NCBI GenBank assembly: GCA_038143065.1
Contig: JAYQLI010000049.1
Span: forward strand, 1-35,050
Length of the DNA stretch: 35,050 bases
Source: Rhodospirillales bacterium
Lineage (GTDB): Bacteria; Pseudomonadota; Alphaproteobacteria; Bin95
Direction of reading: 5' to 3'
The stretch's first letter is position 1. Each line of letters begins with the position of its first letter. A program made the position numbers and the translations under genes. Below, piece by piece: positions 3,077-29,041 of the stretch. The notes under the pieces were generated by a model that saw only the letters and a program-made list of their open reading frames with translations, was not told the origin of the DNA and made no database searches.

Positions 3077-3153
<77 letters not shown>

Positions 3154-3703: not shown

Positions 3704-6542
<2,839 letters not shown>

Positions 6543-6737: not shown

Positions 6738-6762
6738 AATAAATAACATCTCTGTATCTACC

Positions 6763-6850: not shown

Positions 6851-6871
6851 CTAAGCAATATGCTCAAAGGA

Positions 6872-6934
<63 letters not shown>

Positions 6935-6940
<6 letters not shown>

Positions 6941-12669: not shown

Positions 12670-12698
12670 TTTCATCTCCATTTTTTGGTTTTTGCACT

Positions 12699-12708
12699 CT
12701 GTATACAA
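12699..12708. promoter_or_regulatory. Partial operator site upstream of gntR
   Basis: CTGTATACAA, the core of the repeated motif. Confidence 0.5.
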
Positions 12709-12791
12709 AAAGCCAATGCACACAAGGGGGAACCTCTGCTCATGCGGCTCTTCGCAAATTAAGATGTAAGAAACCTCTTGCGCTATTTCGT

Positions 12792-12809
12792 GTACTGTAT
12801 ACAGTATAC
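12792..12809. promoter_or_regulatory. Palindromic operator (probable GntR site) upstream of glxB
   Basis: GTACTGTATACAGTATAC, containing the perfect palindrome TACTGTATACAGTA, downstream of a -35-like TTGCGC at 12778. Confidence 0.75.
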
Positions 12810-12834
12810 AAATAATTACAAGGAGGGTCTTGTC

Positions 12835-13776: not shown

Positions 13777-14465
13777 GTGAGATCGAAATAGAAGTTGGGA
13801 AACGCCATATCCGAGAGATTAACCAAGACATCCAGGAAGCGTGTAAAAGCGATAAAAAAATCCGGGTTGTGAACACTCTCTCGCGGCACAACCTTGGGGT
13901 CGGTTTGCCCGATGGTGCGGACATCACTTTCGAAGGGTCTGTCGGATATTATTGTGGCGGTCTTAATACAGGATCCCGCGTAACGATTGGGCGCAACTGC
14001 GGATGGGCCGTTGGCGAAGGAATGGCCAAAGGTCATATTACTGTAGGCGGCTATGCGGGCATGTCCTGCGGCGCGGCAATGATTGGCGGCACGATCCATG
14101 TAAAGGGTGACGCGGGACCGCGATGTGGCGTTGCGATGAAGGGCGGCAACATCGTGGTTGAAGGTAAGATTGGGTATCAATCTGGCTTTATGGCCCATTC
14201 TGGCAAAATCATCGCGCTGGGCGGCGCGGGTGCGTCTTGTGCCGATGCGCTCTGGAAGGGTGAAGTTTGGGTCGCCGGCGAGATTGAGAGACTTGGCGTC
14301 GATGTGAATGTCATCGAACCCACCGCCGAAGAAGTGGCCGAAGTGGATGCAATCCTTGATCCTCTTGGCCTTAAAGACACATCGCGCAATTGGCGCAAAA
14401 TGGTTTCGGGCGAACGCCTTTGGTATTTTGAAAGTAGGGATGCAAGCGCATGGCTCATGATCTAA
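13773..14465 (+). CDS. glxC: GXGXG/FwdC-like protein, N-methylglutamate synthase subunit B-like
   Basis: REINQ, HNLGVGL, GSVGYYCGGLN, VKGDAGPRCGVAMKGGNIVVEG repeats; intact ORF. Confidence 0.88.
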   Translation: MSEIEIEVGKRHIREINQDIQEACKSDKKIRVVNTLSRHNLGVGLPDGADITFEGSVGYYCGGLNTGSRVTIGRNCGWAVGEGMAKGHITVGGYAGMSCGAAMIGGTIHVKGDAGPRCGVAMKGGNIVVEGKIGYQSGFMAHSGKIIALGGAGASCADALWKGEVWVAGEIERLGVDVNVIEPTAEEVAEVDAILDPLGLKDTSRNWRKMVSGERLWYFESRDASAWLMI

Positions 14466-15874
14466 GTAAACCTTATGACTATCCGTTCGAACTTCCTTCT
14501 GAAGATGAAATTCGGTTCAAAGATGAAGGCGCGATTGAAGGGCGGCCCGCTGGCGTGCCTGCGTCGTATGACGAAGGTGGATCAACACGCTGGACCCCCG
14601 AAGCAATCTCTGAGGTGCATGCCTTGGCGCAATTGGGTCGCTATCAGGTGCGCGGATACAATACGTTTAACAAACGTATGCCGACGTTTGATGATTTGAC
14701 TTTCGTGCCTGCAACGATGACACGCCTGCCTCTTGAGGGGTATCGTGAGAATTGTGATACGACGACGGTTCTTGGCGGGGGGGCGTGGACTTGTGGAAAA
14801 ACCACTTGAATTGAAAATCCCGATCTATATCGCGTCTATGTCATTTGGGGCATTAAGCGCCTCGGCTAAAGCATCGCTTGGTCACGGCGCGTCAAAGGTT
14901 GGAACCATGACCTGTACGGGCGAGGGGGGGATGTTGGAAGAAGAGCGCGAGGCATCGCAGCGTCTTTTATATCAAATGTCGCCTGCACGCTATGGTGTTG
15001 ACCTTGATCACCTGCGTCGCGCAGATGCGCTGGAAATCGTAGTTGGGCAGGGGGCGAAACCAGGAACTGGGGGCTCTTACTCGGCATGAAAGTCAGTCCT
15101 CCGGGTGAGTGAAATGCGGACTCTTCCAGAAGGAGTGGACCAGCGCTCGACCATTCGTCATCCGGATTTCCTTGGGGGCGGACGATCTTGCGGTCAAAAT
15201 CGAAGAGCTGCGCATTGCCACAAATTATCAGGTGCCGATCTTTATCAAGATGGGCGCAACGCGGCCACGCTTCGATGTGGCAGTCGCAGCTAAAGCAGGG
15301 GCGGATGTTGTCGTTGTCGATGGTGCTGAAGGAGGCACAGGTGCCTCGCCTGAGTTGCTTCTCAATCACACTGGTATTCCAACGATGTCGGCTATTCGCG
15401 CGGCGCGAGGCGCTTGATGAATGTGGGATGTCTGGCAAGGTTTCCCTCGTTGCTGCGGGGGTATTCGCTCTGGTGTTGATGCGGCCAAGTGTCTGGCGCT
15501 TGGGGCTGATGCTGTGATGATTGGCAACGCAGCGATGATTGCGCTGGGCTGTAATTCACCTCGCTATTTGGATGATTACGCGAAGCTTGGGACGTCGCCT
15601 GGTGCCTGTCACCATTGTCACACGGGATGTGCCCCGTAGGGTGTTAGCGACCCAAGACCCGACGCTTGAGGCGCGGATGAACCCTCATGCAGGGGCCGAA
15701 CGGATCGCGCGCTATTTGACAGCAATGACGATGGAGATTACGGCGCTTGCTAAGGCCTGTGGTAAATCCTCCGTGCATAATCTTGAAACCGAAGACTTGC
15801 GCGCGCTGAGCTTTGAGGCATCCGCCTTCACGGGGGTTAAAATGGCGGGGATTGATCGGGCGTTTGATTGGTGA
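14450..15874 (+). CDS. glxD: FMN-binding glutamate synthase family protein, N-methylglutamate synthase subunit C-like (frameshifted)
   Basis: FDDLTF, PLEGYRENCDT, IASMSFGALS, TGEGGM, GQGAKPGTGG, RHPD, VVDGAEGGTGA, GIRSGVDAAKCLALGADAV, CHHCHTG.CP Fe-S motif. Confidence 0.9.
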
Positions 15875-16555
15875 TGCGACTGGCGATCCTCGACTGTGCG
15901 ACCTTGGTTGACCCGTCGTTGGAAAAGTATGCGAGCATTGGGGCGTTGGTTGAAAACTGGCTGCGGCGGTTTTTGCACGAAGCCTCATTCGTGATCATTC
16001 CTATCGCACATGGCGCAGAATTCCCAAACCCGTCAGACTATGACGGGTTTGTTTTGCCAGGCTCTGAGGTGGGGGTCTATGATGACACGCCTTGGATGGG
16101 GCCGCTTGGCGACTATCTGCGTAATCCTTCGCGATTTACGCAAACCTTTTTGGCATTTGTTTCGGACATCAGATGATGGCGCATAGTTTTGGAGGTCGGG
16201 CCGCCAAGGCAGGCTATGGGATGTGCGTCGGACGTCGTCGGTTTGATGTAGATGGGACCGAACTGGAGGTCTCGGTTATGCATCAAGACCAAGTCCTTAC
16301 CCCCCCCCAAACGCGAAGGTCATTGGCTCGTCTGATTATTGCCCCAATGCTGTGATCGCTTACGATTTTCCCGCGTTGTCCTGTCAATTTCATCCCGAAT
16401 ACGAGGATGATTTTGTAGAGGATTGCATCGGTGTAATTGCGGGCATGGGAGCTTTGAACGACCAAGAGGCGAGCGACGCACACACAACTCTGAGACCCCA
16501 AAGGATAGTGTCTTTTTCGGGGAAATGGCAGCAGCGTTTTTTAGAGAAACAGTAG
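15874..16555 (+). CDS. Class I glutamine amidotransferase (putative gamma-glutamyl amide hydrolase), frameshifted
   Basis: YDGFVLPGSEVGVYDDTPW, FGICFGHQMMAHSFGG, MHQDQV, CQFHPE: Cys-His-Glu triad present. Confidence 0.85.
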
Positions 16556-16640
16556 AATAAATATTTAGAATAAACGTATTTGTCTGAACAACTTGCTTTT
16601 TCGTTGCCAGATAGAAGCCTTTGAATATATGCGTCAAAAT

Positions 16641-16660
16641 CATGGCCGGGGGCGGCCATG
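16641..16660. terminator. GC-rich hairpin between convergent genes
   Basis: CATGGCCG-GGGG-CGGCCATG; no strong U-tract. Confidence 0.3.
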
Positions 16661-16726
16661 CGATGGCGCGGCGGGCTGCGCTCTTGGTTCAGCGCCGATT
16701 TGACATTGTTTCATTTAGAATGGCTT

Positions 16727-17168
16727 TTATCGTGCGTTCGATGCTGTGTCCGTGAACCGTCCAGAAGTCAGCAGAGGTCGCGCGGGAGGTGTCCCATGTA
16801 TAGAGGTAACTTGCGGCGCGGATCACTTGGTCGTTGTCTAAGGATAACGTCAATCGGTCGCAAGAGCAATTCATAAGGTTCAGGCCAGCCTTCTGTACAG
16901 GCTTCTTAGTCGTCAAAAATGCTAAACATTGGTTCGGGGTATGGACCCGATAGAGGACGCCATGCACCTGATCTTCGGATAAAGGTGAGGGGAAAGCACC
17001 GGGTTAGGGTTTGGACCTTGGAGGTCTTATTCGTGGACGATGTAAAGCCTTGCTTGGATTGAACCTCGCCCGACTTCGTCTGGCGGCCTCACCAAGTAGT
17101 TCACTCATCGGATGGCCTGCTTCGGTCAAGAAGTGTTCCGTAAACAAAAAATATTCTGGCCGTTCCAT
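16727..17168 (-). CDS. Gamma-glutamylcyclotransferase (GGACT/AIG2-like) family protein (several indels)
   Basis: Rebuilt across frames: MERPEYFFVYGTL...VGRGSIQARLY...DQVHGVLYRV...FDDxEACTEGWPEPYE...RAASYLYTWD...SGRF. Confidence 0.75.
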
Positions 17169-17193
17169 CGCTGATCCCTTGTGTGATTTGGAT

Positions 17194-18333
17194 CTATCTA
17201 CCTGATGGGCTTTCTTTGGGTGATAGTTTTTTGCGTCCTGCGATCTTAAATCGATCTGGCGTACCAAACTCGCGCAATCCGACACCTGCCGCGTATTCGG
17301 CAAAAACAGGGGCATGTTTAAACAAATGGCCAGAACATCCGCCTGCAAAGAGGACATTTTCGTGTTCTGGGTGGAAGTCCAGAACAAAATGCGTGTCGGG
17401 GGTGAGGATGATCTGATTGAACTTACTGTCCACAATTCTTTCACCCTCAAGCCCTGGGAGCCGATGGCGGATATAGCTGCGTGTCTTGCCTAGCTTTTCT
17501 TTTTTGATGAGGCGTTCATCGTTATCGAGGTCGATTTTGTCAGGAATCACGACAGCTGCCTTTACCCCTGATCCTTCGGAGGAGGGGATGCCAAAGGACC
17601 CTTGTCCATGATCAATCCAACAAGGCATATGCGACATATCAAACTGTTCTGACCCATCTGGTGTCGATGTGTAGAGAACATTTACCCCTACAATAGTCGA
17701 AATTGGCTTGATCGTGCGGGGGAACATTTCAGCCATCCATGGGCCTGTGGACACAATTATCAAATCCGCCATAAGATGCTGACCGTCTAGCATTGGGCGC
17801 TCATTTGCATCAGTCGTCACGCGCCCACGCTTCACTATGCCACCTAGTTTTCTGAACAGGGTCAAAGCCGTAATCACACAGCGATGTGCCATCAAAAGAC
17901 CTGCTTCAGGCTCGAAGAGCGCATAAGATATTTCATCAACTTTGAACTGTGGGAAACGGGCACGCTCGTCGTCGGTGCTGTAGCGGTAATAAGGAACGCC
18001 AACCTTATCAAAGGTTTCTGAGGTCGCATCTTCCCAATCACAATGCCCTGCGGTGGCGAGGATTAACGCACCACATTCATACATGAGGTTCTGACCCGTT
18101 TCTGCCTGCAGCTCGAGCCATCTTTGACGTGCTTCACGCGCCCAGCGCGTGTAGAATTCGTCCCGTCCTGAGATTGCGCGGATCACGCGGTTATAATCCG
18201 TTGAGGATGCGCGCGAATGTCCCGGCTCCCAACGGTCGATCAAAGTTACCTTTTCCCCGCGCCTTTGAAGCGTCAGTGCGGTCATAACGCCGACAATGCC
18301 ACCACCCACCACAATAATTGAATTTTTGGACAT
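17194..18333 (-). CDS. FAD-dependent oxidoreductase, monomeric sarcosine oxidase / N-methyl-L-tryptophan oxidase-like
   Basis: Intact 379-aa ORF: VVGGGIVG, GHSRASSTDYNRVIR, TPDTHFVLDFHP, GGCSGHLFKHAP (compare GFSGHGFKF). Confidence 0.85.
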   Translation of the reverse strand: MSKNSIIVVGGGIVGVMTALTLQRRGEKVTLIDRWEPGHSRASSTDYNRVIRAISGRDEFYTRWAREARQRWLELQAETGQNLMYECGALILATAGHCDWEDATSETFDKVGVPYYRYSTDDERARFPQFKVDEISYALFEPEAGLLMAHRCVITALTLFRKLGGIVKRGRVTTDANERPMLDGQHLMADLIIVSTGPWMAEMFPRTIKPISTIVGVNVLYTSTPDGSEQFDMSHMPCWIDHGQGSFGIPSSEGSGVKAAVVIPDKIDLDNDERLIKKEKLGKTRSYIRHRLPGLEGERIVDSKFNQIILTPDTHFVLDFHPEHENVLFAGGCSGHLFKHAPVFAEYAAGVGLREFGTPDRFKIAGRKKLSPKESPSGR

Positions 18334-18372
18334 GTGCGAAAATTTTCCTTGTCAGAATCTTGTGTTTATGAA

Positions 18373-18389
18373 TACTGTATACAGAATAC
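18373..18389. promoter_or_regulatory. Operator copy in the divergent oxidase/GS promoter region
   Basis: TACTGTATACAGAATAC; -35-like TTGTCA at 18349. Confidence 0.75.
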
Positions 18390-18436
18390 ACACAAAGACA
18401 AATAAAAATAGAACTAAAACATATTGGGAGAGATGC

Positions 18437-19732
18437 GTGACTGAAACTGACTTTTCGTTGCCCGAAGGCACCCACACGGTGATTTTAGGGATTGGCGACA
18501 TCAACGGGATCATGCGTGGGAAACGTATTCCTGCGTCGAACTGGGAGAATATTTGCAAATCAGGAAACGCGCTTTCCATTGCGATGTTCGCGATTGATAT
18601 GACCTGTGACGTTTGGGACACGCCCTATGTTAATTTCGACAATGGCTACCCCGATATGCACATGTTCCCACTGACAAAGCCTGTTGCCGTTCCATGGGAG
18701 CCCGGCGTTGCTGTCTGTTTTGGCCGCGCTGAAGGAACAGATCACCAGCCAGTTCCAATTGATCCGCGTCAGGCGTTGGTTCGGCAGTTAGACCGCGCTA
18801 AGGCCATGGGGCTTGAAGTTCAAGTCCGCGCCGAGTTGGAATTCTATTTGCTTGATCCGGAGACAGGTCAACCGCGCGATAGCGGGATCCAGGTATATGG
18901 ACTGGGCCGCGCTGCGCGGATGGAACATATTGTGGGTCCAATTCGCCAGCAAATCAACGAATGTGGTATTCCGATTGAACAATCCAATCCTGAGTATGCC
19001 CCTGGACAGGTCGAAGTGAATATTCGTTACGGCGAGGCATTGGAAACTGCAGATCGTGTTGTTCTTTTCAAGTCGCTCATTCGTCAACTAGGGATTGCGC
19101 ATGGGTACTTGGCTACGTTCATGCCGAAACCGTTCTTTGAGCAATCTGGAAGTGGCTTTCATGCGCATTACTCACTCTGGAAGGATGGTAAGAATGTCTT
19201 TTCCGATGGTGGTCAACTTAATGAAATGGGTAAACAATTTGTTGCGGGGCTTCAGGGTCGTATGGCAGAGGCTGCGATTTGTGGTGGCGCGACTGTGAAC
19301 GGCTTCCGCCGTCGTCAGCCTTATACTTTCTGCCCGGTAAATACCAGCTGGGGCTATGACAACCGCACCGTTGGGTTGCGCGTTATCCAGGGGTCAGACA
19401 GTGCCGTGCGCGTTGAAAAGCGGGACGCGGGTGCCGATGCGAACCCGTACCTTCTCATGGCGGCAGATATTGCGGCGGGGCTTGACGGGATTGAACAGGG
19501 CATGAGGCCTAGCGAACCAAGCCTTGGCAATGCCTACGAGGAATTGCACGGCGAACCAATCCCAACCGATCTGTCGACCGCGATCGAAAAGGCGCGTGGG
19601 TCTGATTGGCTCAAGGATGTCATGGGCGAATTACAATGGGAACTCTATCTACAACAGGCCGAGCGAGAGCTTGAGTTTTTTGGACAGCAAGTGACCCAAG
19701 TCGAAACAGATCGTTATTTACGGACACTTTAA
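18437..19732 (+). CDS. Glutamine synthetase family gamma-glutamyl-amine ligase (PuuA/PauA-like)
   Basis: GGGAGAG RBS and GTG start; DINGIMRGKRIP, ELEFYL, EYAPGQVEVN, ATFMPKP, SGSGFHAHYSLW, WGYDNRTVGLR, GADANPYL. Intact ORF. Confidence 0.92.
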   Translation: MTETDFSLPEGTHTVILGIGDINGIMRGKRIPASNWENICKSGNALSIAMFAIDMTCDVWDTPYVNFDNGYPDMHMFPLTKPVAVPWEPGVAVCFGRAEGTDHQPVPIDPRQALVRQLDRAKAMGLEVQVRAELEFYLLDPETGQPRDSGIQVYGLGRAARMEHIVGPIRQQINECGIPIEQSNPEYAPGQVEVNIRYGEALETADRVVLFKSLIRQLGIAHGYLATFMPKPFFEQSGSGFHAHYSLWKDGKNVFSDGGQLNEMGKQFVAGLQGRMAEAAICGGATVNGFRRRQPYTFCPVNTSWGYDNRTVGLRVIQGSDSAVRVEKRDAGADANPYLLMAADIAAGLDGIEQGMRPSEPSLGNAYEELHGEPIPTDLSTAIEKARGSDWLKDVMGELQWELYLQQAERELEFFGQQVTQVETDRYLRTL

Positions 19733-20001
19733 TGAAACTTGCTAAGGTCAAAGGTACAATCACCGCAGCCACCGCAAAGGAAAGCCGCCTCGTCGGGTCA
19801 AACTTTTGTTGGTCGATATGATCGACGCCAAGGGTAAAGACACTCGCTCAAGGTGACGTTGCGGTGGATTGCACAGGTGCAGGTGTGGGGGACATTGTGC
19901 TTGTCACCACTGGCTCCGCCGCGCGTATGGCTGATGGGCAATCTACCTTGCCCATTGATCTTAGCATTATCGCAATCGTCGATAGGGTCAGCACATCCTG
20001 A
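19732..20001 (+). CDS. BMC-P pentamer shell protein (EutN/CcmL family), frameshifted
   Basis: [28 protein letters not shown]...[26 protein letters not shown]...[16 protein letters not shown]. Not translated correctly in the ORF track. Confidence 0.9.
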
Positions 20002-20035
20002 CCTTATCCGCCATCAGTTTTTGGAGGATATAACA

Positions 20036-20344
20036 ATGGCAAAACCAGCAGCGGGTCAGATGGCCCTTGGAATGATTGAAACACGTGGTCTCGTGGCCTC
20101 GATTGAGGCCGCGGATGCGATGGTCAAGGCAGCGAGTGTTTCGATCGTTGGCCACACCAAAGCGGGTGGTGGTCTTGTCACGACCCTTGTGCGTGGCGAA
20201 GTCGGTGCCGTGAAGGCTGCAACAGATGCAGGAGCAACGGCAGCAAACAAAGTGGGTGATGTTGTGTCTGTCCACGTTATCGCGCGTCCGCATGATGAGC
20301 TTGAAGCAATCTTGGATGGTTTGGGCAGCGGGTCCGCCGCATAA
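20036..20344 (+). CDS. BMC-H hexamer shell protein (EutM/PduA-like)
   Basis: GGAGG RBS; [24 protein letters not shown]...[23 protein letters not shown]...VHVIARPH. Confidence 0.96.
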
Positions 20345-20372
20345 TTTTCCCAAAACGTAAGGAGAGGCGGAA

Positions 20373-21557
20373 ATGTCTGCCCTATTTGAGGATTTCACCC
20401 GCGCCGCGTCGCAGAGCAAGACAGCGGCCCCAAAGATCGCGCGACAGTTTTCACGTATTGCGGTTCTCGGGGGCGGTGCGGATGCACGTCAACTGGCGGC
20501 GCTTTGCTTTGCCGAAGGGGCGGAGGTCACACTTTTTTCTGCCTATGGTGCTGAACTTGAGATGATCCGCAGCAGCTCGGGTATTGGTTTACGCGGGACA
20601 GGGCCGATTGGCACTTATCACGTTGATCGTGAGGGCACATCTATCAAAACCACTGCCGAAATCGACAGTGCAGTGCGTGGGGCTGAAGTTATCTTTCTTA
20701 CGGGTCCAGTTCACAAACAACGCACCTATGCAATGGTGCTGGCAGATCATCTAAATGATGGTCAGATACTTGTTCTTGCGCCGGGACGATCGCTGGGAGC
20801 GGTTGAAACGGCGTGGATGTTGCGGATGGGCGGATGCCGTGCAGATGTCACAATCGTAGAACGCCAAGGCTTGCCGTATTGGATGCGTGTTGAAGGAGCG
20901 AATTTGCACCTTTCTGCGGCAGGTCCCCAAATGATTGCAACACTCCCCAGCGGTCGGGCAGACGTCATTGAAGGGCTGGCTCCATTCCTAACTCCGTCCC
21001 TCGTCGCAGGGTCTGTGTTGGAGAGTGGCTTTGCCGATCTCTCTGGTGCAGTTGAAATTCCTGCACTTGTGCTTGGCGGCATAGCTTTGGCCAAGGGCGG
21101 ACCAGAGGTGCCGATGGGGGCCAATCCGTTACCCGAAAACAACACGATGGCCAACCTATAGGCACAGATCATCGCGCCGTGGATTGAAACTCTCGCACAA
21201 GAACGGCGCAAAGTCGCGGCTGCGTTTGGTGTGCGCAATTTGCCCCAAGACGCAGATTGGATCGCAATGTCTTCGGGCTCTGCCTCAGGAGAAGGCGCAC
21301 GTCCTGTTCCAACAACATCAGAATGCCCAGCAATTTTACGTGACGGTGTTACAGGATCATTGATGCCATTGATTTCAGCAGCTGGTGTTGCTGGGAGTGG
21401 ATGCGCCAGTTACCCAAAGCATGGTGACTCTTGTCCGAAACGATCCTTGGGGACACTGTGGCAAGCGGGGCGGCGTTTGGAGACCATTGGAATTACATCT
21501 CAGAATATTGACGAGGCGCGTCGTCGCTTTGACGCAATCCTAAGCGGAGGTCTGTAA
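20373..21557 (+). CDS. NAD/NADP octopine/nopaline (opine) dehydrogenase family protein, divergent (indels and an internal stop near 21160)
   Basis: RIAVLGGGADA Rossmann strand, TTAEIDSAVRGAEVIFL, LADHLNDGQILVLAPG, ERRKVAAAFGV, GRRLETIGI follow the family layout. Confidence 0.7.
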
Positions 21558-22925
21558 TGGATGATGATCTAAAGTCCATCGCGGCTGCACGCCGTGCTGC
21601 GGAAACCGCGTTCGAAGCTTATCGTGCTTTCTTGGAACCGACCCTGCTCATGTCGATGCGATTGTCGACGCAATGGCGCGTGCGATTGAACCCGAGGCGG
21701 AGCGTTTAGGGGCGTTGGCAGTCGAGGAAACTGGATACGGCAATACCCCAGATAAACGGGTAAAGAACCTGTTTAACGCCCTATCCGTTGCGGATTATTT
21801 GCGCGATGTAACGACTTTGGGGATGTTATGGAAGGATGACGCGACCAAAATTGCGGCCTTTGGCGAACCGATGGGTGTCGTTGCGGCGCTTATTCCTGTA
21901 ACAAACCCAACATCGACCATCATTTACAAAGTGCTCGGCGGTAAAGGCGGGCAACGCGATCGTCTGTGCACCGCATCCGCGTGGGGTTCGCTCTGGGATA
22001 GAAACAACCAAAATCCTGGCGAATGTTGCCGAACAGATGGGGGCGCCTAAGGGATTGATCCAATGCCTCGACGCGGTCACAATCCAAGGACAGCCGAACT
22101 GATGCGCCATCGCCGGACCTCTGTTGTGATGGCGACAGGTGGACCAGCTATGGTTAAGGCGGCCTATTCCAGTGGCAAACCTACCCTTGCTGTCGGGGCC
22201 GGTAATGTCCCTGCTACGTGCATAAATCAAAAAGATGATCTCGGTGAAGTAGCTGAAATGATCATTACTTCCAAATGTTTTGATTATGGTACCGCTTGCG
22301 TTTCGGAACAGGCTATTGTTGCTGATCCAGAGATCGCCCGCGATTTACGTCACGAAATGAAAATGCGCGGTGCTTATTTCTGTTCACCCGCCGAGGCAGA
22401 TCGTTTGGCCAAGGTGATTTTTCGTGGTCCCAAGCGATGGATCCAAATCGCGTGGGGCAAAGCCCGGTGGCCTTGGCAGAAGCTGCGGGTTTTCCATTCC
22501 ACCGCGTACCGATGCCTTGTTTCGGAAGAAAGCGAAATAGGGTGGCATCGTCCGTTATCTGCGGAAAAGCTGAACCCCGTTCTGGCGTTCTACGAAGCCA
22601 AGAATAGCGATCATGGCATCGAAATCGCGCATGATATCGCAAAGTTCGAAGGCTGGGGGCATTCGGCTATTGTTCATTCGGATGATCCTGAAATCGTTGC
22701 TAAATTTGCCAGTGTCCCAACAGGCCGTGTCTTGGTCAATACACCGGGGATCATGGGGGGCATGGGCTATTCTACGGACCTTGAACCGTCTTTCATGCTG
22801 GGGACGGGCACATGGTCCGGATCCATAACATCAGACAATGTCACAGCGCTCCATTTGATCAATATCAAGCGCGTGGCTATCAATCGCGGCCTTGGCGCGA
22901 CATTTATGAGGAGTATGGCGCATGA
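21557..22925 (+). CDS. CoA-acylating aldehyde dehydrogenase (EutE/PduP/AdhE-N type), frameshifted
   Basis: AVEETGYGN..DKRVKN, EPMGVVAALIPVTNPTST, ATGGPAMVKAAYSSGKP..VGAGNVP, SKCFDYGTACVSEQ (catalytic Cys), EKLNPVL, PSFMLGTGTWSGSITSDNV..LHLINIKRVA. Confidence 0.92.
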
Positions 22926-23545
22926 GCGACATTCAAATTCGTGCGTTGATGCAGATCGACAATCTACAACCTAAATTCGCCGCGTATAATGGGGCAACAG
23001 TACAAGGGTCGGTACCCTTATCAGGGGATACCGTATTGATCGGTGAATTTGCCCCAGGAAATGGCGTATTTTCTCTGATCGACCGTGCTTTGAAGGCGTC
23101 TTCGGTAGAAGCTACAACTCAGCTCGTCGAGCGTGAGTTTGGTTTCTTCATTCTCCGCTCTCCTCAAATGCCGAGGTCAGTGCGGCGCGTGACGCGATGC
23201 TCGCAGAGCTTGGCGCAACTATGTCGGACCGTTTGAAACCTGCGATTACCTCGACCCAGATTATTACCAGTGTCGAACCCTATCAGGCGCAATTGTTGAA
23301 CAAGTGGCGCAAAGGGTCTTTGATCGTCCCCGGACAAACTTTAGGCATTATCGAATGCGCCCCTGCTGCTTATATCTCTATTGCGGCGAATGAGGCAGAA
23401 AAAGGCCGCTGAGATTGACATTGTCGAGGTACGCGCCGTTGGACGGTTTGGGCGCTTGTTTATCTGTGGCTCGGAAAACTCTGTGAATGCAGGGGTTGAG
23501 GCTGCGGTCAAAGCAATCGAAGCTGTGGATGGACAGGCAGGCTAA
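22922..23545 (+). CDS. BMC-T tandem-domain shell protein, CcmP/CsoS1D-like (stacking type), frameshifted
   Basis: IDNLQPKFAAY.G...EFAPG...DRALKA...VEREFG...RLKP...YQAQLLNK.RKGS...PAAY...AANEAEKA...VRAVGRFGRL. Confidence 0.9.
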
Positions 23546-24718
23546 TGGCACAGAGCCGTGTCATAGGGGCCGATGCCATCGAAAACGCACGCCGTCGAGG
23601 CGTATTGTTTTGAGGTGCTGCCGAATGACATTGTCACCGCTTTGGCATCTGAGACTGCCGAGCGGCTTGGATAAAATTGGTTGATGGACCTCTTGAAAAA
23701 GCCCTCTTGCCCCTGGCGCACAGATGGGGCGATAGCACAGCAACGCGCTCTATCGTCGGTCACCGAAATGGAAGACGCCGACACGTGCCCCGCGCAAAGC
23801 AGGGCGGTTTGCAAAGATTGCTTTCGTTGGTGCGGGGGTGTTGGGGGCAATGTTGCGCATTTGGCGGCGATGGCGGATATGGCGGCGGAATTGGCCATGA
23901 TTGACATTACGCGGGCTTGGCAACTGCGCTTGCGCTTGACTTAAACCACACGAGCGGGATCACGGTGGCGCTGTGCGCTGTTATGGCGGAGGAGCTTTGA
24001 CCTCGTTGCAGATGCAGATGTGGTGGTTGTAACGGCGGGACGTGCGCGTTCCCCGGGAATGAGCCGCGCAGATTTGATTGACGTGAATGCGCGTGTGATC
24101 CGTCAAGCAGGCGCAGCCATTCGTGCCGAAGCCCCCAATGCGATAGTGATTGTGGTGACCAACCATTGATGAAATGACACTTGAGATGCTCCGTGCTACG
24201 GAATTCCCGCGTGAACGTGTTTTGGGATGGGCAGGGACGCTTGACTCGGCGCGGTTCAGAAATGCCCTTGCAATGGCGGCGGGTGTGACGCCTGCGGATG
24301 TTTCTGCGATAACCCTCGGCTCGCATGGGGATGAAATGGCGCCAATCACATCGCTTGCGCGGATCAAGGGGCGGCCTTTGTCTGTGTTTTTGTCACAAGA
24401 GCAAATTGATGCTTGTGCCAAAGATGCGATTACCGGCGGCGGGCAAGTTGTAGCTTTGAAAAAATCAGGATCGGCCACCATTGCCCCTGCTCATTCAACG
24501 ATTGAATTGCTTGATCACATGCGCGGCGCTCGGACAGACCCGTGCCTGTGTCCGTTATGCTCGAAGGAGAATATGGGATATCAGGTGTTGTCCTTGGGGT
24601 GCCTGCGCATTTAGGGCGTTCGGGTTTGCTTAAAGTTGAAAATCTGCGTCTTACATTGGAAGAAAATGCTCAATTAAACGCTGCAGCTGAGGCGATCCGA
24701 ACACGGCTTGGATTATGA
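23545..24718 (+). CDS. Malate dehydrogenase (LDH-like) with an N-terminal extension of about 85 aa, frameshifted
   Basis: KIAFVGAGGVGGNVAHL, DADVVVVTAGRARSPGMSRADLIDVN (Arg at the malate-specificity position), VVTNP.D, AGTLDSARFR, LGSHGDEM, LEGEYGI...LGVP. Confidence 0.85.
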
Positions 24719-25114
24719 GTATTCGCATCCATAAGGCAGGCGGACGTTTCGAAGAGGTGGGAAGTTATGCCCGCGCAAAACGCGTTGGCGATCATGTTTG
24801 GGTCGCGGGAACAACAGCCTTTAGAGGATAGCGGGCGTATTCATGCGCCTAATGACGTTATGCTCAAACGACGTTTATTTGGGTAAAATCCAACCGCGCT
24901 TGCGCGCGGTTGGCGCGGACTTGCATCATGTCTGCCGTGTGCGAGTCTATTTAACAGATATGTCCCATGCGAGCGGATTTATTCGCGCACATGGTGAGAT
25001 ATTCAAAGGGGAATTGATCCCGTGTTAACCGCCGTTACAGCGGGATTAACGCAAGACGGCATGGTCGTTGAAATTGATGTGGATGGAATTATCCACGACA
25101 AGGCTTCTCTCTAA
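24715..25114 (+). CDS. Rid (YjgF/RidA superfamily) protein, frameshifted
   Basis: FEEVGSYARAKRVGDHVWVAGTT...RVRVYLTDM...AHGEIFKG..P...MVVEIDVDG. Confidence 0.82.
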
Positions 25115-25150
25115 AGCGACAAAAAAAAGTTGATACGACTCATCTATTGT

Positions 25151-25168
25151 GTACTGTATACAGAATAC
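25151..25168. promoter_or_regulatory. Operator copy upstream of the ABC transporter operon
   Basis: GTACTGTATACAGAATAC; -35-like TTGATA at 25130. Confidence 0.75.
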
Positions 25169-25196
25169 AAAGATATATAATCAGGGAGATATAACA

Positions 25197-26481
25197 ATGA
25201 AACTTGTGAAAGGAATGGGTGTAGGCCTGTTATCTGCCATGATGGCGACAACTGCTCTTGCGGAAATTAAGGTCGGCTTTAAAGGGTCTCTTTCGTCCGA
25301 TACTGGGCTGTCCACATTGCGCGGCGCAGAAATGGCGATTGAGGAACTCAATGCCCAAGGTGGCGTGATGGGTGAAAAGATCACTCTGGTCACTGCTGAT
25401 ACAGGCGAGGATGTTACAGAGGGCGTAAAAGCTTATGAATACCTCGCTGAGACGGAAGAGGTGGATTTCATCATTTCTGGATCAATCGATGATGTGTCTT
25501 TGGGCTGGTTGCCACGGATGCAGGAGTTTCAGATCCCAACGCTCGACACTTGGACATCCTATATCGGAATCATCGATATGGTGATCGAAGATCCTGATAC
25601 CATGGCCCCTTATTTCATGAACATTGCCTCGGATGAAGCATTGGCAACGCTCTATATCAACTTTGGTGCCGATGTTCTTAAGGCTAAAAATGGGTTGGGA
25701 TAGCGTTGTGGTCCTCGCTGAAGATACGGCTTTTGGTGGTGCGATTACTGGACCTTCGTGGCCAGATGCGCTGGCGCCAGTTGCAGGGATCGAAGTCAAA
25801 GATGTTATCACCTATGACGTTAATACGGTTGATTTCGGACCGATCTTTCGAAGGCGCAAGCAAGTGGTGCAGATTTATCTACCAAGTGAGCTCGGTTAAT
25901 TCGCAGGTGATGTCGTCGCAATATGTGAAATTGCAGTTCCTATGGCGATGACAGGGGGTAAACGTATCAGCGTTTGGGATGGAATATTGGGAAGATACTG
26001 GGGGAGCAGGGGCGGGATTTCGACGCTTTCGCCGGTGCCATCCGTAGGGTTCGAGCTTGATCTAGTCAGTGCAAAATTTGTTGAGGATTATCAAGCCAAA
26101 TATACATCGCGTCCCTCTATCCCGCACTTTAACGGCTTTAACGCCTATCATGGCCTTAAGCAGGCGATGGCTGCGGCTGCCGAGGCTGGCGGATTTAAGG
26201 ATGTCAAAGCATGGACCGCGGCGATGCTGAAGCAAGACCTGAAACTTGAAAAAGATGGTAAGCTTTGGTTGCGCTATGGTTTCTGGCAGCATGGTGAGGT
26301 AGAGCCTGTGACCGGCCGAACTTATCCACAAAATGCGCGGTTTGACCTGAGCGCGCCCTATGATGATGCGCAACCATCCAGGGTGGTTATCCAGTGGAAA
26401 GAGGATGGATCTGTAGGCGTTGTTTATCCGTTTGAATACGCTAACACTGAGTTTGAATTGCCAAGCTGGGTCAAGAAATAA
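25197..26481 (+). CDS. ABC transporter substrate-binding protein, LIV/HAAT family (frameshifted)
   Basis: Signal peptide MKLVKG...TTALA; EIKVG; RGAEMAIEELNAQGGVMGEKITLVTADT; VIQWKEDG...VYP. Confidence 0.9.
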
Positions 26482-26490
26482 AAACGATTT

Positions 26491-26511
26491 AGGCGGGCAT
26501 TTTGCCCGCCT
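26491..26511 (+). terminator. Intergenic stem-loop after the binding-protein gene (attenuating or mRNA-stabilising)
   Basis: AGGCGGGCA-TTT-TGCCCGCCT perfect 9-bp stem. Confidence 0.55.
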
Positions 26512-26543
26512 TAATGACCCAAGAAATTCGCAGGCAATTTTCG

Positions 26544-27388
26544 ATGATACAAATTCTTATCCAAGGGCTTTTGCTCAGTGGGCTATACGCGCTTATTGCA
26601 GTTGGTTTTACATTATCTTTAGTGTCGGACGCATTTTGAACTCGCCCTATGGCGCGTATCTGATGCTTGGTGGATATATGTATTTGGATTAGCCAGAGCA
26701 TGGGAATGCCGAAACTCTTAGGTGTTTTAATGGCAGTTGTCAGTTGGGATTGCCCTGGGGATTTTGAAATATCAACTGATCGTCAAAACACTTAGAGCGA
26801 TCATGTCGCGGTGGAAATCTCGACACTCATTTTGGCAGTTGTTCTTCAGGCGGGTGTCGTCTTGGTGTTTGGAGATAGCTCAAAAATCCTGTTGCCGATC
26901 ATTCCTGGCGTTGTCTACATCTGGGGTGCCTGTGACCTACAACATCCTTGCTGCAACGCTGGCGAGTTGGTGATCCTTGGGGGACCTTATCTCTTCATCA
27001 AAACACACATACAGGCCGCGCGATGCAAGCAGTGTCGATGGACACCAAAGGCGCGGCAATTAGTGGGATTGTGCCTGATCATATCAACATGATTACTTGG
27101 GCCATTTCTGGCGGTCTTGGTGCGCTGGGCGGTGTGTTTTTTGTAAAGTTACACGCAACTCGCCCCATCAATGTGGGTCGCGCCGCTGATTATATCTGTC
27201 GCGGTTGTGATTGTGGGCGGAATTGGATCAATTATCGGTACATTGATTGTCGCGCATATCGTAGGATTTATGGAGGTATCGGTGGTCTCCTCCTAAGCCC
27301 CGAATTGCGCGGGGTGTTCACAATGCTCCTGATTATCTTGGTCCTTGTGATGCGACCGCAAGGGCTATTTGGTCGAGAGGAGCTTTGA
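26544..27388 (+). CDS. Branched-chain amino acid-type ABC permease (LivH-like), frameshifted
   Basis: MIQILIQGLLLSGLYALIAVGFTL, TGRAMQAVSMD..GAAISGI, VIVGGIGS, VLVMRPQGLFG. Confidence 0.88.
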
Positions 27389-27389
27389 C

Positions 27390-28326
27390 ATGGGGCTTCG
27401 TTGGTATCATTTCGCAGCATGGGGCGCATTTATTCTCGGTCTGATGGCCTTGCCTCGAATTGGTGAGCAAAGGGACATTGCGAACTATTATCTTTGCCAA
27501 CTACCTCGCGATTTTTGCGATTAGTTGGGATTTGCTATCAGGCGCACTGGCTACATAAGTTTTGGCCATCCGTTTTTGATCGGGATAGGCGCCTCATACC
27601 AGTGCGATTTTGACAAAACGCTTTGGGTCGATGTTGAATTGGCAATTCCATTGCAGTGGTTGTGACGATGCTTGGGGCTTAGTCGTTCTTTTGCCTGCTC
27701 TTCGTATCAAAGGAAGTTATTTCGCCCTAGTCACCTTGGCGTTTATGGAACTGATGTATCAACTTGTCCAAGTTATCCGCCCAGACCTAACCGGGGGAAC
27801 ACGTGGGATGTCGGGTATTCAAACCCTGACGCGTGGGGCGGTGAGTGGGTTTTACCTCAGCTCGGTTCTGATGGTGATCGTGGCGATTGCCGCGTGGCTG
27901 CTGATGCGAACACGGCTTGGGACAGCGTTGACGGCGGTTGGACTTAACGAGAGCGCGGTAGAGGGAAGCGGTCTTTCCACCACAAAACTTAAAATGGTGG
28001 CGTTCTTGGTAAGTGCCTTTGTCGCGGGCTTGGAGGGGCATTTATGTGCATTACCTCGGATCCATCGCGCCGCGAGCTTTGTTCGATATCAATTTTGTGT
28101 TCACGATTATCGTTGCGGTTTTGATTGGGGGGGCTTCAACAATTATAGGCCCCATCATTGGGGCGTTTTTTCTCACGTTTTTGCTTGAGTATCTGCCCTG
28201 GCTACCAGGGGCAGAGCGCTATTTCATCTATGGGGGAATAGCGCTTTTGCTTTATATGTATCAACCCAAAGGGATATATTACATGCTGCAATCAGGGTGG
28301 GCGCGCCTGAAAGGAGCACATCATGA
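27390..28326 (+). CDS. Branched-chain amino acid-type ABC permease (LivM-like), frameshifted
   Basis: SWDLLSG.TGYISFGH, LRIKGSYFALVTLAF, TGGTRG, VLIGGASTIIGPIIGA, YQPKGI. Confidence 0.88.
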
Positions 28327-29041
28327 CTGCTGTGTTAGAAGTCACAAATCTCGTTAAAACCTTTGGTGGTCTCACAGCGACGAATGATCTTTCTTTCGCT
28401 CTGGAACCAGGGAGAATCTGTTGGGTTGATAGGGCCAAATGGCGCAGGCAAGACCACAGTATTTAGCCAAATGGGGGATGCAAACCTCTGGATCAATCAA
28501 ATTATTTGGCACTGATATAGGGTCCTGTCGATGCCTGAACGCATTCGCCGTGGTGTTAGCCGTACGTATCAGGTCCCTCGTCCGTTTGCTGACCTGAGCG
28601 TGTTGGAAAACATCCGCGTCGGGTTCATGCCAAACTCGGTTTGGGGCATGGTTGTAGAGCGCCCAAATGTGGAACAGGAACGACCTTGCACTTGAAGTTG
28701 GATTTAATGCGGCTGATCTAGAAAAGCCCGCGTCTGACCTGTCGATGGGAGATTTGCGCAAATCGGAATTGGCGCGCACACTGGCGACAGGAGCCCACGG
28801 TGCTGCTGCTTGATGAGGTTTTTGCCGGCCTTACTGTTGAGAAATTACGCAAATTAGTGCGCTAATTCAGAAACTGCGGAGCCAAGGGATCACCATGCTG
28901 ATGGTCAGCCATGATTTGCCTGCGCTTGATCCCCTTGCTGACCGGGTCATTGCAATCGAACGGGAAGCATGATCGCCAAAGGCAGCTTTGCCGAGGTGAT
29001 CGCCAACGAAGAGGTTCGCGCCTCTTATTTGGTATCCATGA
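28323..29041 (+). CDS. ABC transporter ATP-binding protein (LivG-like), frameshifted
   Basis: VLEVTNLVKTFGGLTA, GLIGPNGAGKTT (Walker A), RTYQVPRPF, LLLDEVFAGL, VSHDL. Confidence 0.88.

Follow-up and report, generated by a model that had tools for sequence, protein, structure and literature searches.

The microcompartment (BMC) operon at positions 18437-25114 of the window, the whole 35,050-nucleotide stretch that was analyzed, raises two questions: what its shell would enclose, and whether it is of a new type. The best reading is of a metabolosome with an incomplete core, in which an aldehyde would arise from a γ-glutamylated amine and an encapsulated malate dehydrogenase (MDH) would recycle NAD+. 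We give a probability of about 0.5 to the proposal that this is a small aerobic metabolosome of a Roseobacter-group bacterium, for the breakdown of an imported amine that is first tied to glutamate.

The operon is a genuine BMC operon of the metabolosome type, as judged by its gene identities and its conservation in related loci. All the genes named in the sequence-only reading are present, in the order given there and on the plus strand, by Pfam or profile matches and by orthologs at a related locus, L004. A glutamine synthetase (GS)-family ligase (PF00120, E 4.9e-87) is intact in an open reading frame at 18296-19732, with a plausible GTG start at 18437. It is followed by the pentameric (vertex) shell protein BMC-P (19732-20001, PF03319, two assembly frameshifts) and the intact hexameric shell protein BMC-H (20036-20344, PF00936, 89.3 bits). 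Next are an opine-dehydrogenase-fold NAD(P) dehydrogenase (20373-21557, five frameshifts), a CoA-acylating aldehyde dehydrogenase (AldDH) of the EutE/AdhE type (21557-22925, nine), and BMC-T, of the CcmP/CsoS1D-like double-stacking trimer type (22922-23545, NF053796 203 bits, two). The last two genes encode an N-terminally extended, LDH-like MDH paralog (23545-24718, ten) and a Rid (YjgF/L-PSP) family protein (24715-25114, three; PF01042 on the L004 protein). As the dehydrogenase, AldDH, BMC-T, MDH and Rid genes are fragmented in the window, they were identified via the intact orthologs of L004. The five start/stop overlaps claimed earlier, including that from GS to BMC-P, are all in the sequence, as TAATG at 19732, 21557 and 23545 and as ATGA at 22922 and 24715.

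An rRNA operon is present on the contig itself, and its 16S gene is 96% identical to that of Ruegeria but only 83-84% to that of the bin's chromosome. The contig is therefore from a Roseobacter, as had been proposed, mis-binned in another alphaproteobacterial genome; it does not belong to the bin's main organism.

Conservation was assessed in 80 related loci, picked by homology to the opine-dehydrogenase-fold enzyme. Gene order is invariant among them, and GS, BMC-P and BMC-H are found in all 80, so that the proposed linkage of GS to the shell genes is universal in this set. AldDH, BMC-T, MDH and Rid are present together in 66 of 66 loci. The shell set is complete and minimal, as first described (one H, one P, one T): in each of five isolate genomes with the locus, its BMC-H and BMC-T are the sole PF00936 matches and its BMC-P the sole PF03319 match. 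The genes conserved in the 80 loci include no classical BMC signature enzyme, and neither EutB nor PduL was found in any of the five isolate genomes, in agreement with the absence of such enzymes noted for the window.

The GS-family ligase is a candidate γ-glutamyl-amine synthetase by its sequence relationships. It scores 239.5 bits against TIGR03105, under the cut-off of 469.6 bits, and is under the equivalog cut-offs for both GmaS and γ-glutamylputrescine synthetase. It is a paralog distinct from canonical GmaS, which is encoded elsewhere in three of the five isolate genomes. The best solved homolog is 5DM3 (E 1.1e-59), which we take to be from Chromohalobacter, with the glutamate-methylamine ligases 7CQL and 9QUR behind it.

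The dehydrogenase matches Arthrobacter opine dehydrogenase (CENDH, 1BG6) with an E value of 2e-17, or 3.4e-20 with a profile, and octopine and metallophore opine dehydrogenases rank after it. With Foldseek the two-domain fold aligns over its full length (TM 0.85 to 1bg6), the next structural neighbors being ketopantoate and mandelate dehydrogenases. The Pfam Octopine_DH match, at 22.2 bits, lies below the 30-bit threshold, which counts against the main reading. The Asp aligned to Asp297 of CENDH is conserved. In the HMMER alignment a near-invariant Glu is located opposite His202 of CENDH, which we take to be the catalytic residue, and the enzyme may therefore not perform classical opine chemistry. 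Alternatively, it could function as an alcohol or 2-oxo-acid dehydrogenase, in line with its ketopantoate and mandelate neighbors. Classical opine dehydrogenases yield a 2-oxo acid, not an aldehyde, which also counts against the main reading. By a rule of thumb, the residue after the second Rossmann strand bears on the choice between NAD and NADP. Here it is an invariant Ser (S56), with no acidic residue, and the rule leaves the cofactor open; use of NADP could break the proposed redox coupling.

All three dehydrogenases of the operon carry terminal extensions. In the AlphaFold2 model of the opine-dehydrogenase-fold enzyme, residues 3-13 form an isolated helix, followed by a low-confidence, disordered linker (residues 14-27). 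M1, F5 and F8 are invariant in 48 orthologs while the linker varies, and the modeled helix is a candidate encapsulation-peptide-like element. AldDH has a C-terminal tail, conserved in the 25 orthologs inspected of 73. Its best structure match is 5J78 (E 8.2e-130), with Listeria 3K9D also matching, both acetaldehyde-type acylating enzymes. The N-terminal extension of MDH, about 90 residues, is conserved in 48 of 48 aligned orthologs, and is modeled as a small domain and a helix within disordered linkers. The remainder of this protein is MDH-like (NF004863, 305 bits, over the 283-bit cut-off; 4PLH, E 3e-69 for residues 90-389). In all five genomes it is a second, dedicated paralog beside the housekeeping MDH and is over the curated MDH cut-off. 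In the alignment consensus the substrate loop reads R-x-x-P-G-M-[ST]-R, as is usual in oxaloacetate-specific enzymes. BMC-T matches CcmP (4HT5, E 1.5e-45) as well as the RMM shell proteins 5L39 and 5SUH.

The neighboring genes point to amine metabolism. Upstream, on the minus strand, is a frameshifted GntR/FCD-family regulator (12016-12935), located by tblastn with the L004 ortholog and found in 40 of the 61 loci whose flank is long enough; both Pfam domains match the L004 protein, and FCD matches the window at 11998-12459. On the plus strand there follows a glx-like trio: a class-II glutamine amidotransferase-like (GlxB/MgsA-like) gene (12835-13755, frameshifted, identified by the L004 ortholog and GATase_6/7), an intact GXGXG-motif (GlxC/MgsB-like) gene (13773-14465, PF01493, 85% identical to L004 in one frame), and an FMN glutamate-synthase-domain (GlxD/MgsC-like) gene (14465-15874, frameshifted, PF01645, E 1.3e-98 on L004). 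In its domains the trio corresponds to N-methylglutamate synthase. The claimed glx linkage stands for 41 of the 61 loci that extend 7.5 kb or more upstream (directly upstream in 39) and does not extend to the other 20, which lack the trio nearby, a point that we count against the main reading. A frameshifted class-I amidotransferase/peptidase C26-like gene (15874-16516, plus strand, PF00117 and weakly PF07722) is a candidate γ-glutamyl amidohydrolase.

An intact, divergently transcribed gene at 17194-18333 on the minus strand encodes an FAD amine oxidase (PF01266). The enzyme belongs to the monomeric sarcosine oxidase (MSOX)/N-methyltryptophan oxidase family and is found in all of the 76 loci with sufficient flank. 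It matches MSOX in the Protein Data Bank with an E value of 3.2e-33, and scores 193.5 bits against NF008425, under the 257-bit cut-off. The range of the MSOX alignment reveals no terminal or recognizable targeting extension. This is the first enzyme that one would expect to make an aldehyde from N-alkyl amino acids, and its lack of an extension is a further point against the main reading.

Downstream, on the plus strand, a frameshifted ABC importer (25149-29031) comprises a Peripla_BP_6 binding protein (25149-26481), two BPD_transp_2 permeases and at least one ATPase. The suggested linkage of this transporter is borne out, as the binding protein is found in 58 of the 62 loci whose flank suffices. 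Binders of Leu/Ile/Val are only weakly similar to it and give no clue to its ligand, which is likewise counted against the main reading.

In the mechanism that we favor, the amine would be imported by the ABC system and converted by the GS-family ligase to its γ-glutamyl amide. In the two thirds of loci that have it, the N-methylglutamate-synthase-like trio would turn the amide into an N-substituted glutamate. The opine-dehydrogenase-fold enzyme, which is the candidate for the signature enzyme, would oxidize the glutamate-tagged compound to an aldehyde within the shell, and the EutE-type dehydrogenase would trap this as acyl-CoA. NADH from these two steps would be re-oxidized by the encapsulated MDH, reducing oxaloacetate to malate, so that a malate/oxaloacetate shuttle would stand in for the usual alcohol dehydrogenase. 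With no phosphotransacylase, CoA and acyl-CoA would pass via the gated CcmP-type trimer. The FAD amine oxidase and Rid would work outside the shell, or where substrates enter it, on N-substituted amino acids of the same class and on their imines. The substrate class, the choice of the aldehyde-making enzyme, the direction in which each reaction runs and the encapsulation of the enzymes are our inferences. The earlier proposal, that C-N oxidation of an N-alkyl amino acid yields the aldehyde or imine, is plausible.

The alternative that survives best, although we consider it unlikely, is an encapsulated version of the known γ-glutamyl amino-alcohol route. The amine would be an amino alcohol other than ethanolamine, the opine-dehydrogenase-fold enzyme would act as an alcohol dehydrogenase to make a γ-glutamyl amino-aldehyde within the shell, AldDH would convert this to acyl-CoA, and the C26-like amidohydrolase would free glutamate. 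In its favor are the rank of 5DM3, presumed to be from Chromohalobacter, ahead of 7CQL and 9QUR, the non-conservation of the opine dehydrogenase catalytic His in the alignment, and the presence of hydroxy-acid and ketopantoate dehydrogenases among the fold neighbors. Of the 61 loci, 34 have the C26-like gene, a point in favor, and 27 lack it, a point against. The universally linked FAD oxidase and Rid, and the trio where present, would have no role. The enzyme classes, from ligase and dehydrogenase to aldehyde dehydrogenase and amidohydrolase, match the ethanolamine pathway of Streptomyces, Chromohalobacter and Phaeobacter, as described in the portions consulted of PMC9397018 and PMC10132767, but the known ethanolamine operon, in the portion of PMC10132767, has a TRAP transporter and needs no shell.

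Improbable, in our view, is catabolism of an imported opine-type compound, in which the dehydrogenase would split an N-carboxyalkyl amino acid, of the kind that marine invertebrates and algae contain, to an amino acid and a 2-oxo acid (oxaloacetate or glyoxylate). MDH would then reduce the 2-oxo acid and AldDH would take an aldehyde-acid such as glyoxylate. The match to the Arthrobacter enzyme, over the full length in sequence and fold, the amino-acid type of the binding protein and the retained MDH loop are consistent with it, and Rid and the FAD oxidase would suit secondary amine/imine chemistry. Nonetheless, it leaves the universal, translationally coupled GS and the glx-like genes without explanation, AldDH is nearest to 5J78 and 3K9D and to no known glyoxylate enzyme, and the Glu opposite His202 argues against it.

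An analog of the N-methylglutamate pathway also seems rather improbable. Here the aldehyde, for instance acetaldehyde in the case of ethylamine via theanine, would be split off from an N-alkylglutamate by the FAD oxidase and not by the NAD(P) dehydrogenase, and the shell would hold only the downstream AldDH and its redox partners. GS and the trio together have the domain make-up of GmaS and N-methylglutamate synthase, the FAD enzyme is in the right family (sarcosine/N-methyl amino acid oxidases), and AldDH resembles acetaldehyde dehydrogenases; with canonical GmaS elsewhere in three of five genomes, the locus set would serve another alkylamine. Yet an aldehyde formed outside the shell, by an oxidase with no recognizable targeting extension, would defeat the purpose of the organelle. 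The always-present opine-dehydrogenase-fold enzyme, with its encapsulation-peptide-like N-terminus, would be left unexplained, and a third of the loci (20/61) have no trio nearby.

Frameshift-aware alignment places 31 frameshifts over 19.7-25.1 kb, and none in the roughly 2.5 kb of the GS and FAD oxidase genes. Logan contigs from four runs of four independent metagenome studies have bases inserted or deleted at the break sites, and these natural copies are intact. At each of the 12 indel places listed, of 49, all four runs are concordant; most of the 12 are at, or a few bases from, a mapped frameshift, and one (18425) is intergenic. The breaks thus arose in this assembly and do not reflect pseudogenization, which the sequence-only reading had named as a way for its proposal to fail. 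The same defect is found on the small contigs throughout the assembly, and even in rpoB on its main contig. That the operon is a decaying, functionless pseudogene cluster, as 31 frameshifts in 5.4 kb might suggest, is thus most improbable, since the breaks are all indels and the frame-corrected proteins are 59-90% identical to those of L004, with stops in the aligned frames only at gene ends and at one site upstream of the BMC-T start.

The claim of a new BMC type is not established. The same locus is found in Ruegeria sp. ANG-R, R. profundi and Falsiruegeria mediterranea M17, it has been public since about 2015, and its shell proteins have UniProt/UniRef records. As the 2021 BMC catalog was built on all UniProtKB shell proteins up to March 2020, the locus type is very probably filed there among the uncharacterized MIC/MUF types. 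We found no paper in the literature on the function of this locus type. MIC1, compared by its partial description only, has an AldDH, a further dehydrogenase, a lactate/malate-family dehydrogenase and a single CcmP homolog, all of which are present here. The genes by which the closest catalogued types differ are found neither in the conserved gene set of the 80 loci nor in the annotated Hoeflea flank.

Among characterized systems, the amino-alcohol-linked RMM of Mycobacterium and Rhodococcus is likewise amine-linked, lacks cofactor-recycling enzymes and has CcmP-type trimers, proposed to pass cofactors, according to the sections consulted of PMC5853799 and PMC4207490. It differs in its two CcmP homologs, its aminotransferase, kinase and short-chain dehydrogenase chemistry and its occurrence in Actinobacteria, and it lacks the GS-family ligase, opine-dehydrogenase-fold enzyme, MDH and Rid of this locus. 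EUT also combines an amine substrate with a luminal EutE-type acylating AldDH (TIGR02518, 492 bits for the locus enzyme; 3K9D). In comparison, the locus has no ethanolamine ammonia-lyase, PduL/Pta-type enzyme or iron alcohol dehydrogenase, and its shell is minimal. Compared with opine dehydrogenases (CENDH, octopine and staphylopine types), the locus enzyme has the same fold and the Asp297 counterpart, but it is only about 24% identical, differs in its C-terminal domain score and at His202, has the extra N-terminal helix and linker, and always adjoins shell genes (80/80).

The Eto/GlnA4 ethanolamine, Puu/Pau polyamine and N-methylglutamate routes begin, as here, with a GS-family ligase. No encapsulated version of any of them was found in the literature searched for microcompartment and pathway terms. 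As proposed for this locus, the γ-glutamyl routes continue with an oxidation that yields an aldehyde, and they include an aldehyde dehydrogenase and an amidohydrolase-like protein, as covered in the extracts used of PMC9397018 and PMC10132767, which provide a Roseobacter precedent for γ-glutamyl amine catabolism through an aldehyde; the Phaeobacter ethanolamine operon encodes a γ-glutamylase, two dehydrogenases and an amidohydrolase (PMC10132767, same extracts). The locus differs in that its aldehyde dehydrogenase is CoA-acylating and, relative to the N-methylglutamate pathway, in having a monomeric-sarcosine-oxidase-like enzyme instead of the four-subunit N-methylglutamate dehydrogenase. The cluster is a real, widely conserved set of genes for a protein-shelled organelle in marine bacteria, always linked to genes of amine metabolism.

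The operon is located on the forward strand of the window, from 18.3 to 25.1 kb, and encodes, in this order, a glutamine synthetase (GS)-family ligase, the bacterial microcompartment (BMC) shell proteins BMC-P and BMC-H, a 394-residue dehydrogenase, an aldehyde dehydrogenase (AldDH), the shell protein BMC-T, a malate dehydrogenase (MDH)-like protein and a Rid protein. Since the ligase and BMC-H genes are the only uninterrupted ones of this operon in the window, the genes were named through their intact orthologues in Sulfitobacter aestuariivivens (locus L004, found via the dehydrogenase). In searches of L004 with Pfam and NCBIfam, the ligase matches Gln-synt_C, Rid matches Ribonuc_L-PSP, and the dehydrogenase has a weak match to Octopine_DH. 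BMC-P is recognized by EutN_CcmL (PF03319; 52.8 bits for the window fragment and 86.7 bits for the full-length L004 protein) and BMC-H by BMC (PF00936; 89.3 bits in the window and 90.3 bits in L004). The AldDH is a EutE-type acetylating aldehyde dehydrogenase (TIGR02518, 492 bits), BMC-T is a CcmP-like tandem BMC protein (203 bits with the CcmP model), and the MDH matches NF004863 (305 bits, cut-off 283 bits), with 90 unmatched residues preceding the matched part. The gene set and order proposed in the sequence-only reading are thus confirmed, and its five stop/start overlaps are all found in the window.

An intact gene for an FAD oxidase of the monomeric sarcosine oxidase family lies upstream on the opposite strand. 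Farther upstream are a GntR/FCD regulator, a class-II amidotransferase, a GXGXG protein and an FMN glutamate-synthase-domain protein (the last three to be referred to as the glx-like trio), and a class-I amidotransferase/C26-like protein. A five-component branched-chain-type ABC importer is located downstream. A small ORF of L004 (6525-6860; 110-140 aa, with a C-terminal cysteine motif) separates the C26-like gene from the FAD oxidase gene and has counterparts in 19 loci; of three orthologues searched, two match DUF6455. The expected position in the window, around 16550-17190, is error-rich, and the ORF is unrecognisable there. Apart from this ORF, no conserved gene beyond those named was found in the flanks of related loci. 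In L004 only, the binding protein gene of the importer is separated from the permease genes by an inserted metallo-beta-lactamase/alkyl-sulfatase-like gene (16939-18204). The window also contains an intact gene of the GFA family (glutathione-dependent formaldehyde-activating enzyme; 32439-32921, reverse strand) 7 kb downstream of the operon; other loci gave no sign that it is linked to the BMC genes. A single ORF at 10093-11274 combines an alpha/beta-hydrolase fragment with a TetR regulator (TetR_N and TetR_C_7) and is probably two genes joined by an assembly indel. An inverted repeat of about 400 bp (7112-7517 and 11395-11802, 73% identity) flanks the region with the TetR-family gene.

When the L004 proteins are aligned to the window with frameshifts allowed, 31 frameshifts are placed between 19.7 and 25.1 kb; the ligase and FAD oxidase genes have none. 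The frame-corrected proteins are 59-90% identical to those of L004, and stops occur in the aligned frames only at the gene ends and, once, upstream of the BMC-T start. For the 17.2-25.2 kb stretch, sixteen public runs each contain 50% or more of the 31-mers sampled. Logan contigs from four runs of four studies agree with one another at all 12 indel places listed (49 places in all), among them 21181, 23911, 23963, 23991, 24162/24167, 24536, 24818 and 25007, and most of the listed places are at or within a few bases of the mapped frameshift sites. The frameshifts are assembly errors; an indel-only pattern is not what gene decay gives. The possibility that the shell genes are true pseudogenes, raised in the sequence-only reading, fails at this point, as the contigs of all four studies correct the listed places concordantly. 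In the bin genome (GCA_038143065.1), one contig of 2.86 Mb has normal long-ORF coverage (0.65), and about 50 small contigs have poor coverage. The errors nevertheless extend past the small contigs, since rpoB on the main contig is split in two frames near 2662010 (G000:C35:2660058-2664196).

The contig of the window (C49) is from a different organism than the bin. A complete rRNA operon is found at 1469-6945, with 16S (1469-2926), two tRNAs (3077-3150 and 3204-3276), 23S (3708-6541), 5S (6621-6735) and a further tRNA (6872-6945). The 16S and 23S are 79-85% identical to those of the three other rRNA operons in the bin (contigs C35 and C39), and 83-84% for 16S alone. In comparison, 16S identity reaches 96% with Ruegeria sp. 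ANG-R and R. profundi, 95% with Sulfitobacter aestuariivivens, 94% with Falsiruegeria and 88% with Hoeflea. The tetranucleotide correlation of C49 with the main contig is 0.55, whereas chunks of the main contig average 0.94 and never fall below 0.76, and the GC content of C49 is 51% versus 47%. On the basis of the rRNA identities and the outlying composition, C49 is a Roseobacter-group contig mis-binned into a different alphaproteobacterial genome, and the Roseobacter-group origin proposed from the sequence alone is upheld. The RpoB of the bin is 75% identical to that of Hoeflea and 71% to that of Sulfitobacter. The lack of PF00936 in all 40 relatives of the bin genome was discarded as evidence on the host: because C49 is mis-binned, these relatives belong to the wrong organism and are uninformative on the true one. 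Four other small contigs (C23, C28, C46 and C31), together with C49, have GC contents of 0.51-0.53, and their tetranucleotide frequencies correlate with those of the main chromosome at 0.50-0.60 (at least 0.76 for its own chunks); all five may come from one foreign genome, perhaps of a Roseobacter. The stated contamination of the bin is 5.5%. Other interpretations of this genome also have to take into account that the contig is mis-binned and error-rich.

The locus is conserved well beyond this contig. Of 374 stretches matched in a pattern scan, 140 code for a protein related to the dehydrogenase, and the 80 best of these were kept; the loci were therefore chosen through the dehydrogenase, and the counts cover these 80 rather than the other 60 relatives. 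Their hosts include Ruegeria, Sulfitobacter, Tropicibacter, Falsiruegeria, Aliishimia, Amylibacter, Hoeflea, Nitratireductor, Microbaculum, Granulosicoccaceae, Halioglobus and many MAGs. As far as the contigs reach, the FAD oxidase (on the opposite strand), GS, BMC-P, BMC-H, dehydrogenase, AldDH, BMC-T, MDH and Rid genes have an identical order in every one of the 80 loci, and within this set the dehydrogenase family is always embedded in this BMC operon. Among loci with enough flank, the FAD oxidase is present in 76 of 76, AldDH, BMC-T, MDH and Rid together in 66 of 66, the ABC binding protein in 58 of 62, the GntR regulator in 40 of 61 and the C26-like protein in 34 of 61. The linkage to GS and glx genes described from the sequence alone stands for GS, which is kept in every locus, but the glx-like trio is found in only 41 of 61 loci with enough flank (directly upstream in 39).

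BMC-P genes were found in 15 of 201 sampled genomes from the family to which Ruegeria sp. ANG-R belongs, and eight of the 15 have the dehydrogenase alongside, so that the locus is present in about 4% of the sampled species of the family. The other seven genomes (G056, G065, G082, G124, G143, G194 and G206) have a lower-scoring, different BMC-P without the opine-dehydrogenase-fold enzyme, and carry a second BMC type within the family; G063, with a second BMC-P match, seems to carry both. The locus is also found in marine Hyphomicrobiales and some Gammaproteobacteria, and near-identical copies are present in seawater, estuary, marine and wetland metagenomes from at least seven studies.

The shell of this compartment is small. 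In all five isolate genomes, the BMC-domain and EutN/CcmL genes of the locus are the only ones genome-wide, and the shell therefore consists of one BMC-H, one BMC-T and one BMC-P, as the sequence-only reading had it. BMC-T is of the CcmP/CsoS1D double-trimer kind, with E values of 1e-41 to 1e-45 for the CcmP, HO-5816 and CsoS1D structures. The AldDH is CoA-acylating (pfam00171; match to 5J78, E 8.2e-130). EutB and PduL are both absent from the five isolate genomes, which for EutB extends to whole genomes the earlier observation that the window has no ethanolamine ammonia-lyase gene. Neither a phosphotransacylase (PduL or Pta) nor an alcohol dehydrogenase is among the conserved genes of the locus, and as a result it is a metabolosome with an incomplete core by published definitions. 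The MDH paralogue stands at the place of the alcohol dehydrogenase, the usual occupant of this slot.

The dehydrogenase is related to the Arthrobacter opine dehydrogenase (CENDH, 1BG6), with an E value of 2e-17 over residues 30-376 (3.4e-20 in a profile search) at about 24% identity; its Octopine_DH (PF02317) score of 22.2 bits is under the Pfam gathering threshold of 30. The AlphaFold model (pLDDT 86.6) has 1BG6 as its best Foldseek match (E 2.5e-22, TM 0.85), followed by octopine and metallophore opine dehydrogenases and then ketopantoate reductases. In the HMMER alignment, which at 24% identity may be off by a few residues, His202 and Asp297 of CENDH, which we take to be its catalytic pair, face the near-invariant E228 and the conserved D324, respectively. 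The Rossmann fold is preceded in the model by a stand-alone helix at residues 3-13 and then a disordered linker; Met1, Phe5 and Phe8 are invariant and the linker is variable among 48 orthologues. Encapsulation peptides usually are short amphipathic helices set off by a linker, and the modeled N-terminus, having this form, is a candidate for one.

The other two NAD(P)-linked enzymes also have terminal extensions. The AldDH has a short conserved C-terminal tail. In the model of the MDH, residues 5-48 form a small beta-alpha-beta-beta-alpha-beta domain, a helix (61-72) lies between disordered stretches, and a normal MDH core starts at residue 89. The N-terminal domain has no Pfam match at E values up to 10 and no usable Atlas match. 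The small domain has 39 matches among 1.84 billion representative proteins, most of which appear, by their length, to be orthologues or fragments of the same MDH family. Ten of them were scanned: four have MDH domains, three have no Pfam match, and three are multi-repeat proteins (Ig-like, cadherin or TSP3 domains) and probably spurious. The paralogue is a member of the LDH-like malate dehydrogenases and scores 306-316 bits with NF004863 in the five genomes, all of which also have a housekeeping MDH. Residues Arg170, Pro172, Gly173, Arg176 and His263 are invariant in 48 sequences, and the first Arg of the substrate loop is a mark of oxaloacetate specificity.

The ligase scores 230-244 bits with the equivalog model for gamma-glutamylmethylamide synthetase (GmaS; 239.5 in the NCBIfam search of L004), for which the cut-off is 469.6, and three of the five genomes have a true GmaS (645-661 bits) elsewhere. 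Judged by these scores, the ligase is not a canonical GmaS. The glx-like trio has the domain make-up of N-methylglutamate synthase, and the FAD enzyme falls among the N-methyl amino acid oxidases. Together, the family assignments of the ligase, the trio and the FAD enzyme point to an amine carried on glutamate. The ABC binding protein is weakly similar to Leu/Ile/Val binders and gives no hint of a ligand. Gamma-glutamylation as the entry to amine catabolism via an aldehyde is established for ethanolamine in Streptomyces, in the relevant passages of PMC9397018. The same route for ethanolamine, with proteomics support, is described in a section of PMC10132767 for Phaeobacter sp. MED193, a Roseobacter, with a TRAP-linked operon given there without shell genes.

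Because three NAD(P)-linked enzymes have terminal extensions and the MDH occupies the alcohol dehydrogenase slot, we propose that the MDH regenerates NAD+ in the lumen with oxaloacetate. The boldest reading of the observations, to which we assign a probability of about one in four, would be a functionally new class of metabolosome, with a signature enzyme of the opine dehydrogenase family and an encapsulated MDH running a malate/oxaloacetate redox shuttle. The opine-dehydrogenase-family enzyme would free an aldehyde from the glutamate-tagged amine inside the shell. With a targeting domain present in no other protein family, the MDH would run the malate/oxaloacetate shuttle across the protein shell, in place of the alcohol dehydrogenase that, to our knowledge, all characterised metabolosomes have. 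If so, this would be a bacterial-organelle counterpart of the peroxisomal and mitochondrial shuttles. A serious rival is that the opine-dehydrogenase-fold enzyme acts as an alcohol dehydrogenase; it is kept because this family has a near-invariant Glu opposite the catalytic His of CENDH in the alignment.

The locus is real, widespread and experimentally tractable, with culturable hosts. Characterised metabolosomes nearly all serve anaerobic or gut metabolism (propanediol, ethanolamine, choline, fucose). The hosts here are aerobic marine heterotrophs of the kind that dominates the bacterioplankton of coasts and the surfaces of algae and animals. Were its substrate an amine, the organelle would give dissolved organic nitrogen a route now missing from marine models. 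For the BMC field, the locus offers a minimal three-protein shell, a candidate new family of signature enzymes, and a testable answer to NAD+ recycling in a metabolosome with an incomplete core.

In public records, the shell proteins are named correctly, and the dehydrogenase is called 'hypothetical protein' or 'opine dehydrogenase'. UniProtKB-style accessions exist for the R. profundi and F. mediterranea proteins of the locus, and the catalogue of Sutter 2021 was, according to its preprint, built on all UniProtKB shell proteins up to March 2020. As a result, the locus type very probably figures in that catalogue already, under the types without an assigned function, as the sequence-only reading had allowed. 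Among the papers listed by our literature search, none was found that describes the gene content of the locus, links a BMC to gamma-glutamyl or opine-type chemistry, or reports an encapsulated MDH. For Ruegeria/Roseobacter and five other genera, none of the matches listed concerns BMCs, and the sole mention of microcompartments in PMC12478193 is in a reference title. On the gene content or taxa of the MIC and MUF types, the main texts of Sutter 2021, BMC Caller and Axen 2014 give a single paragraph, on MIC1.

In a comparison with the N-methylglutamate pathway (GmaS, MgsABC, MgdABCD), the glx-like trio is a possible counterpart of the three-subunit synthase MgsABC, its domain make-up being present in 41 of 61 loci. 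The ligase of the locus is below the GmaS equivalog cut-off, and in place of a four-subunit N-methylglutamate dehydrogenase there is only the monomeric sarcosine-oxidase-like enzyme. MIC1, as described in one paragraph of Axen 2014, has an AldDH, a lactate/malate-family dehydrogenase, a further dehydrogenase and a single CcmP homologue and no PTAC, and the locus is like it in each of these respects. On the other hand, the zinc-binding dehydrogenase, hydrolase, phosphatase and MreB-like protein of that paragraph are not among the conserved genes of the 80 loci, and are absent from the annotated flanks of L004 and of two other related loci, L070 and L007 (including Hoeflea and Rhodobacter). The opine dehydrogenase family (PF02317/CENDH) has the same two-domain fold as the dehydrogenase of the locus, and the homology extends over its full length.
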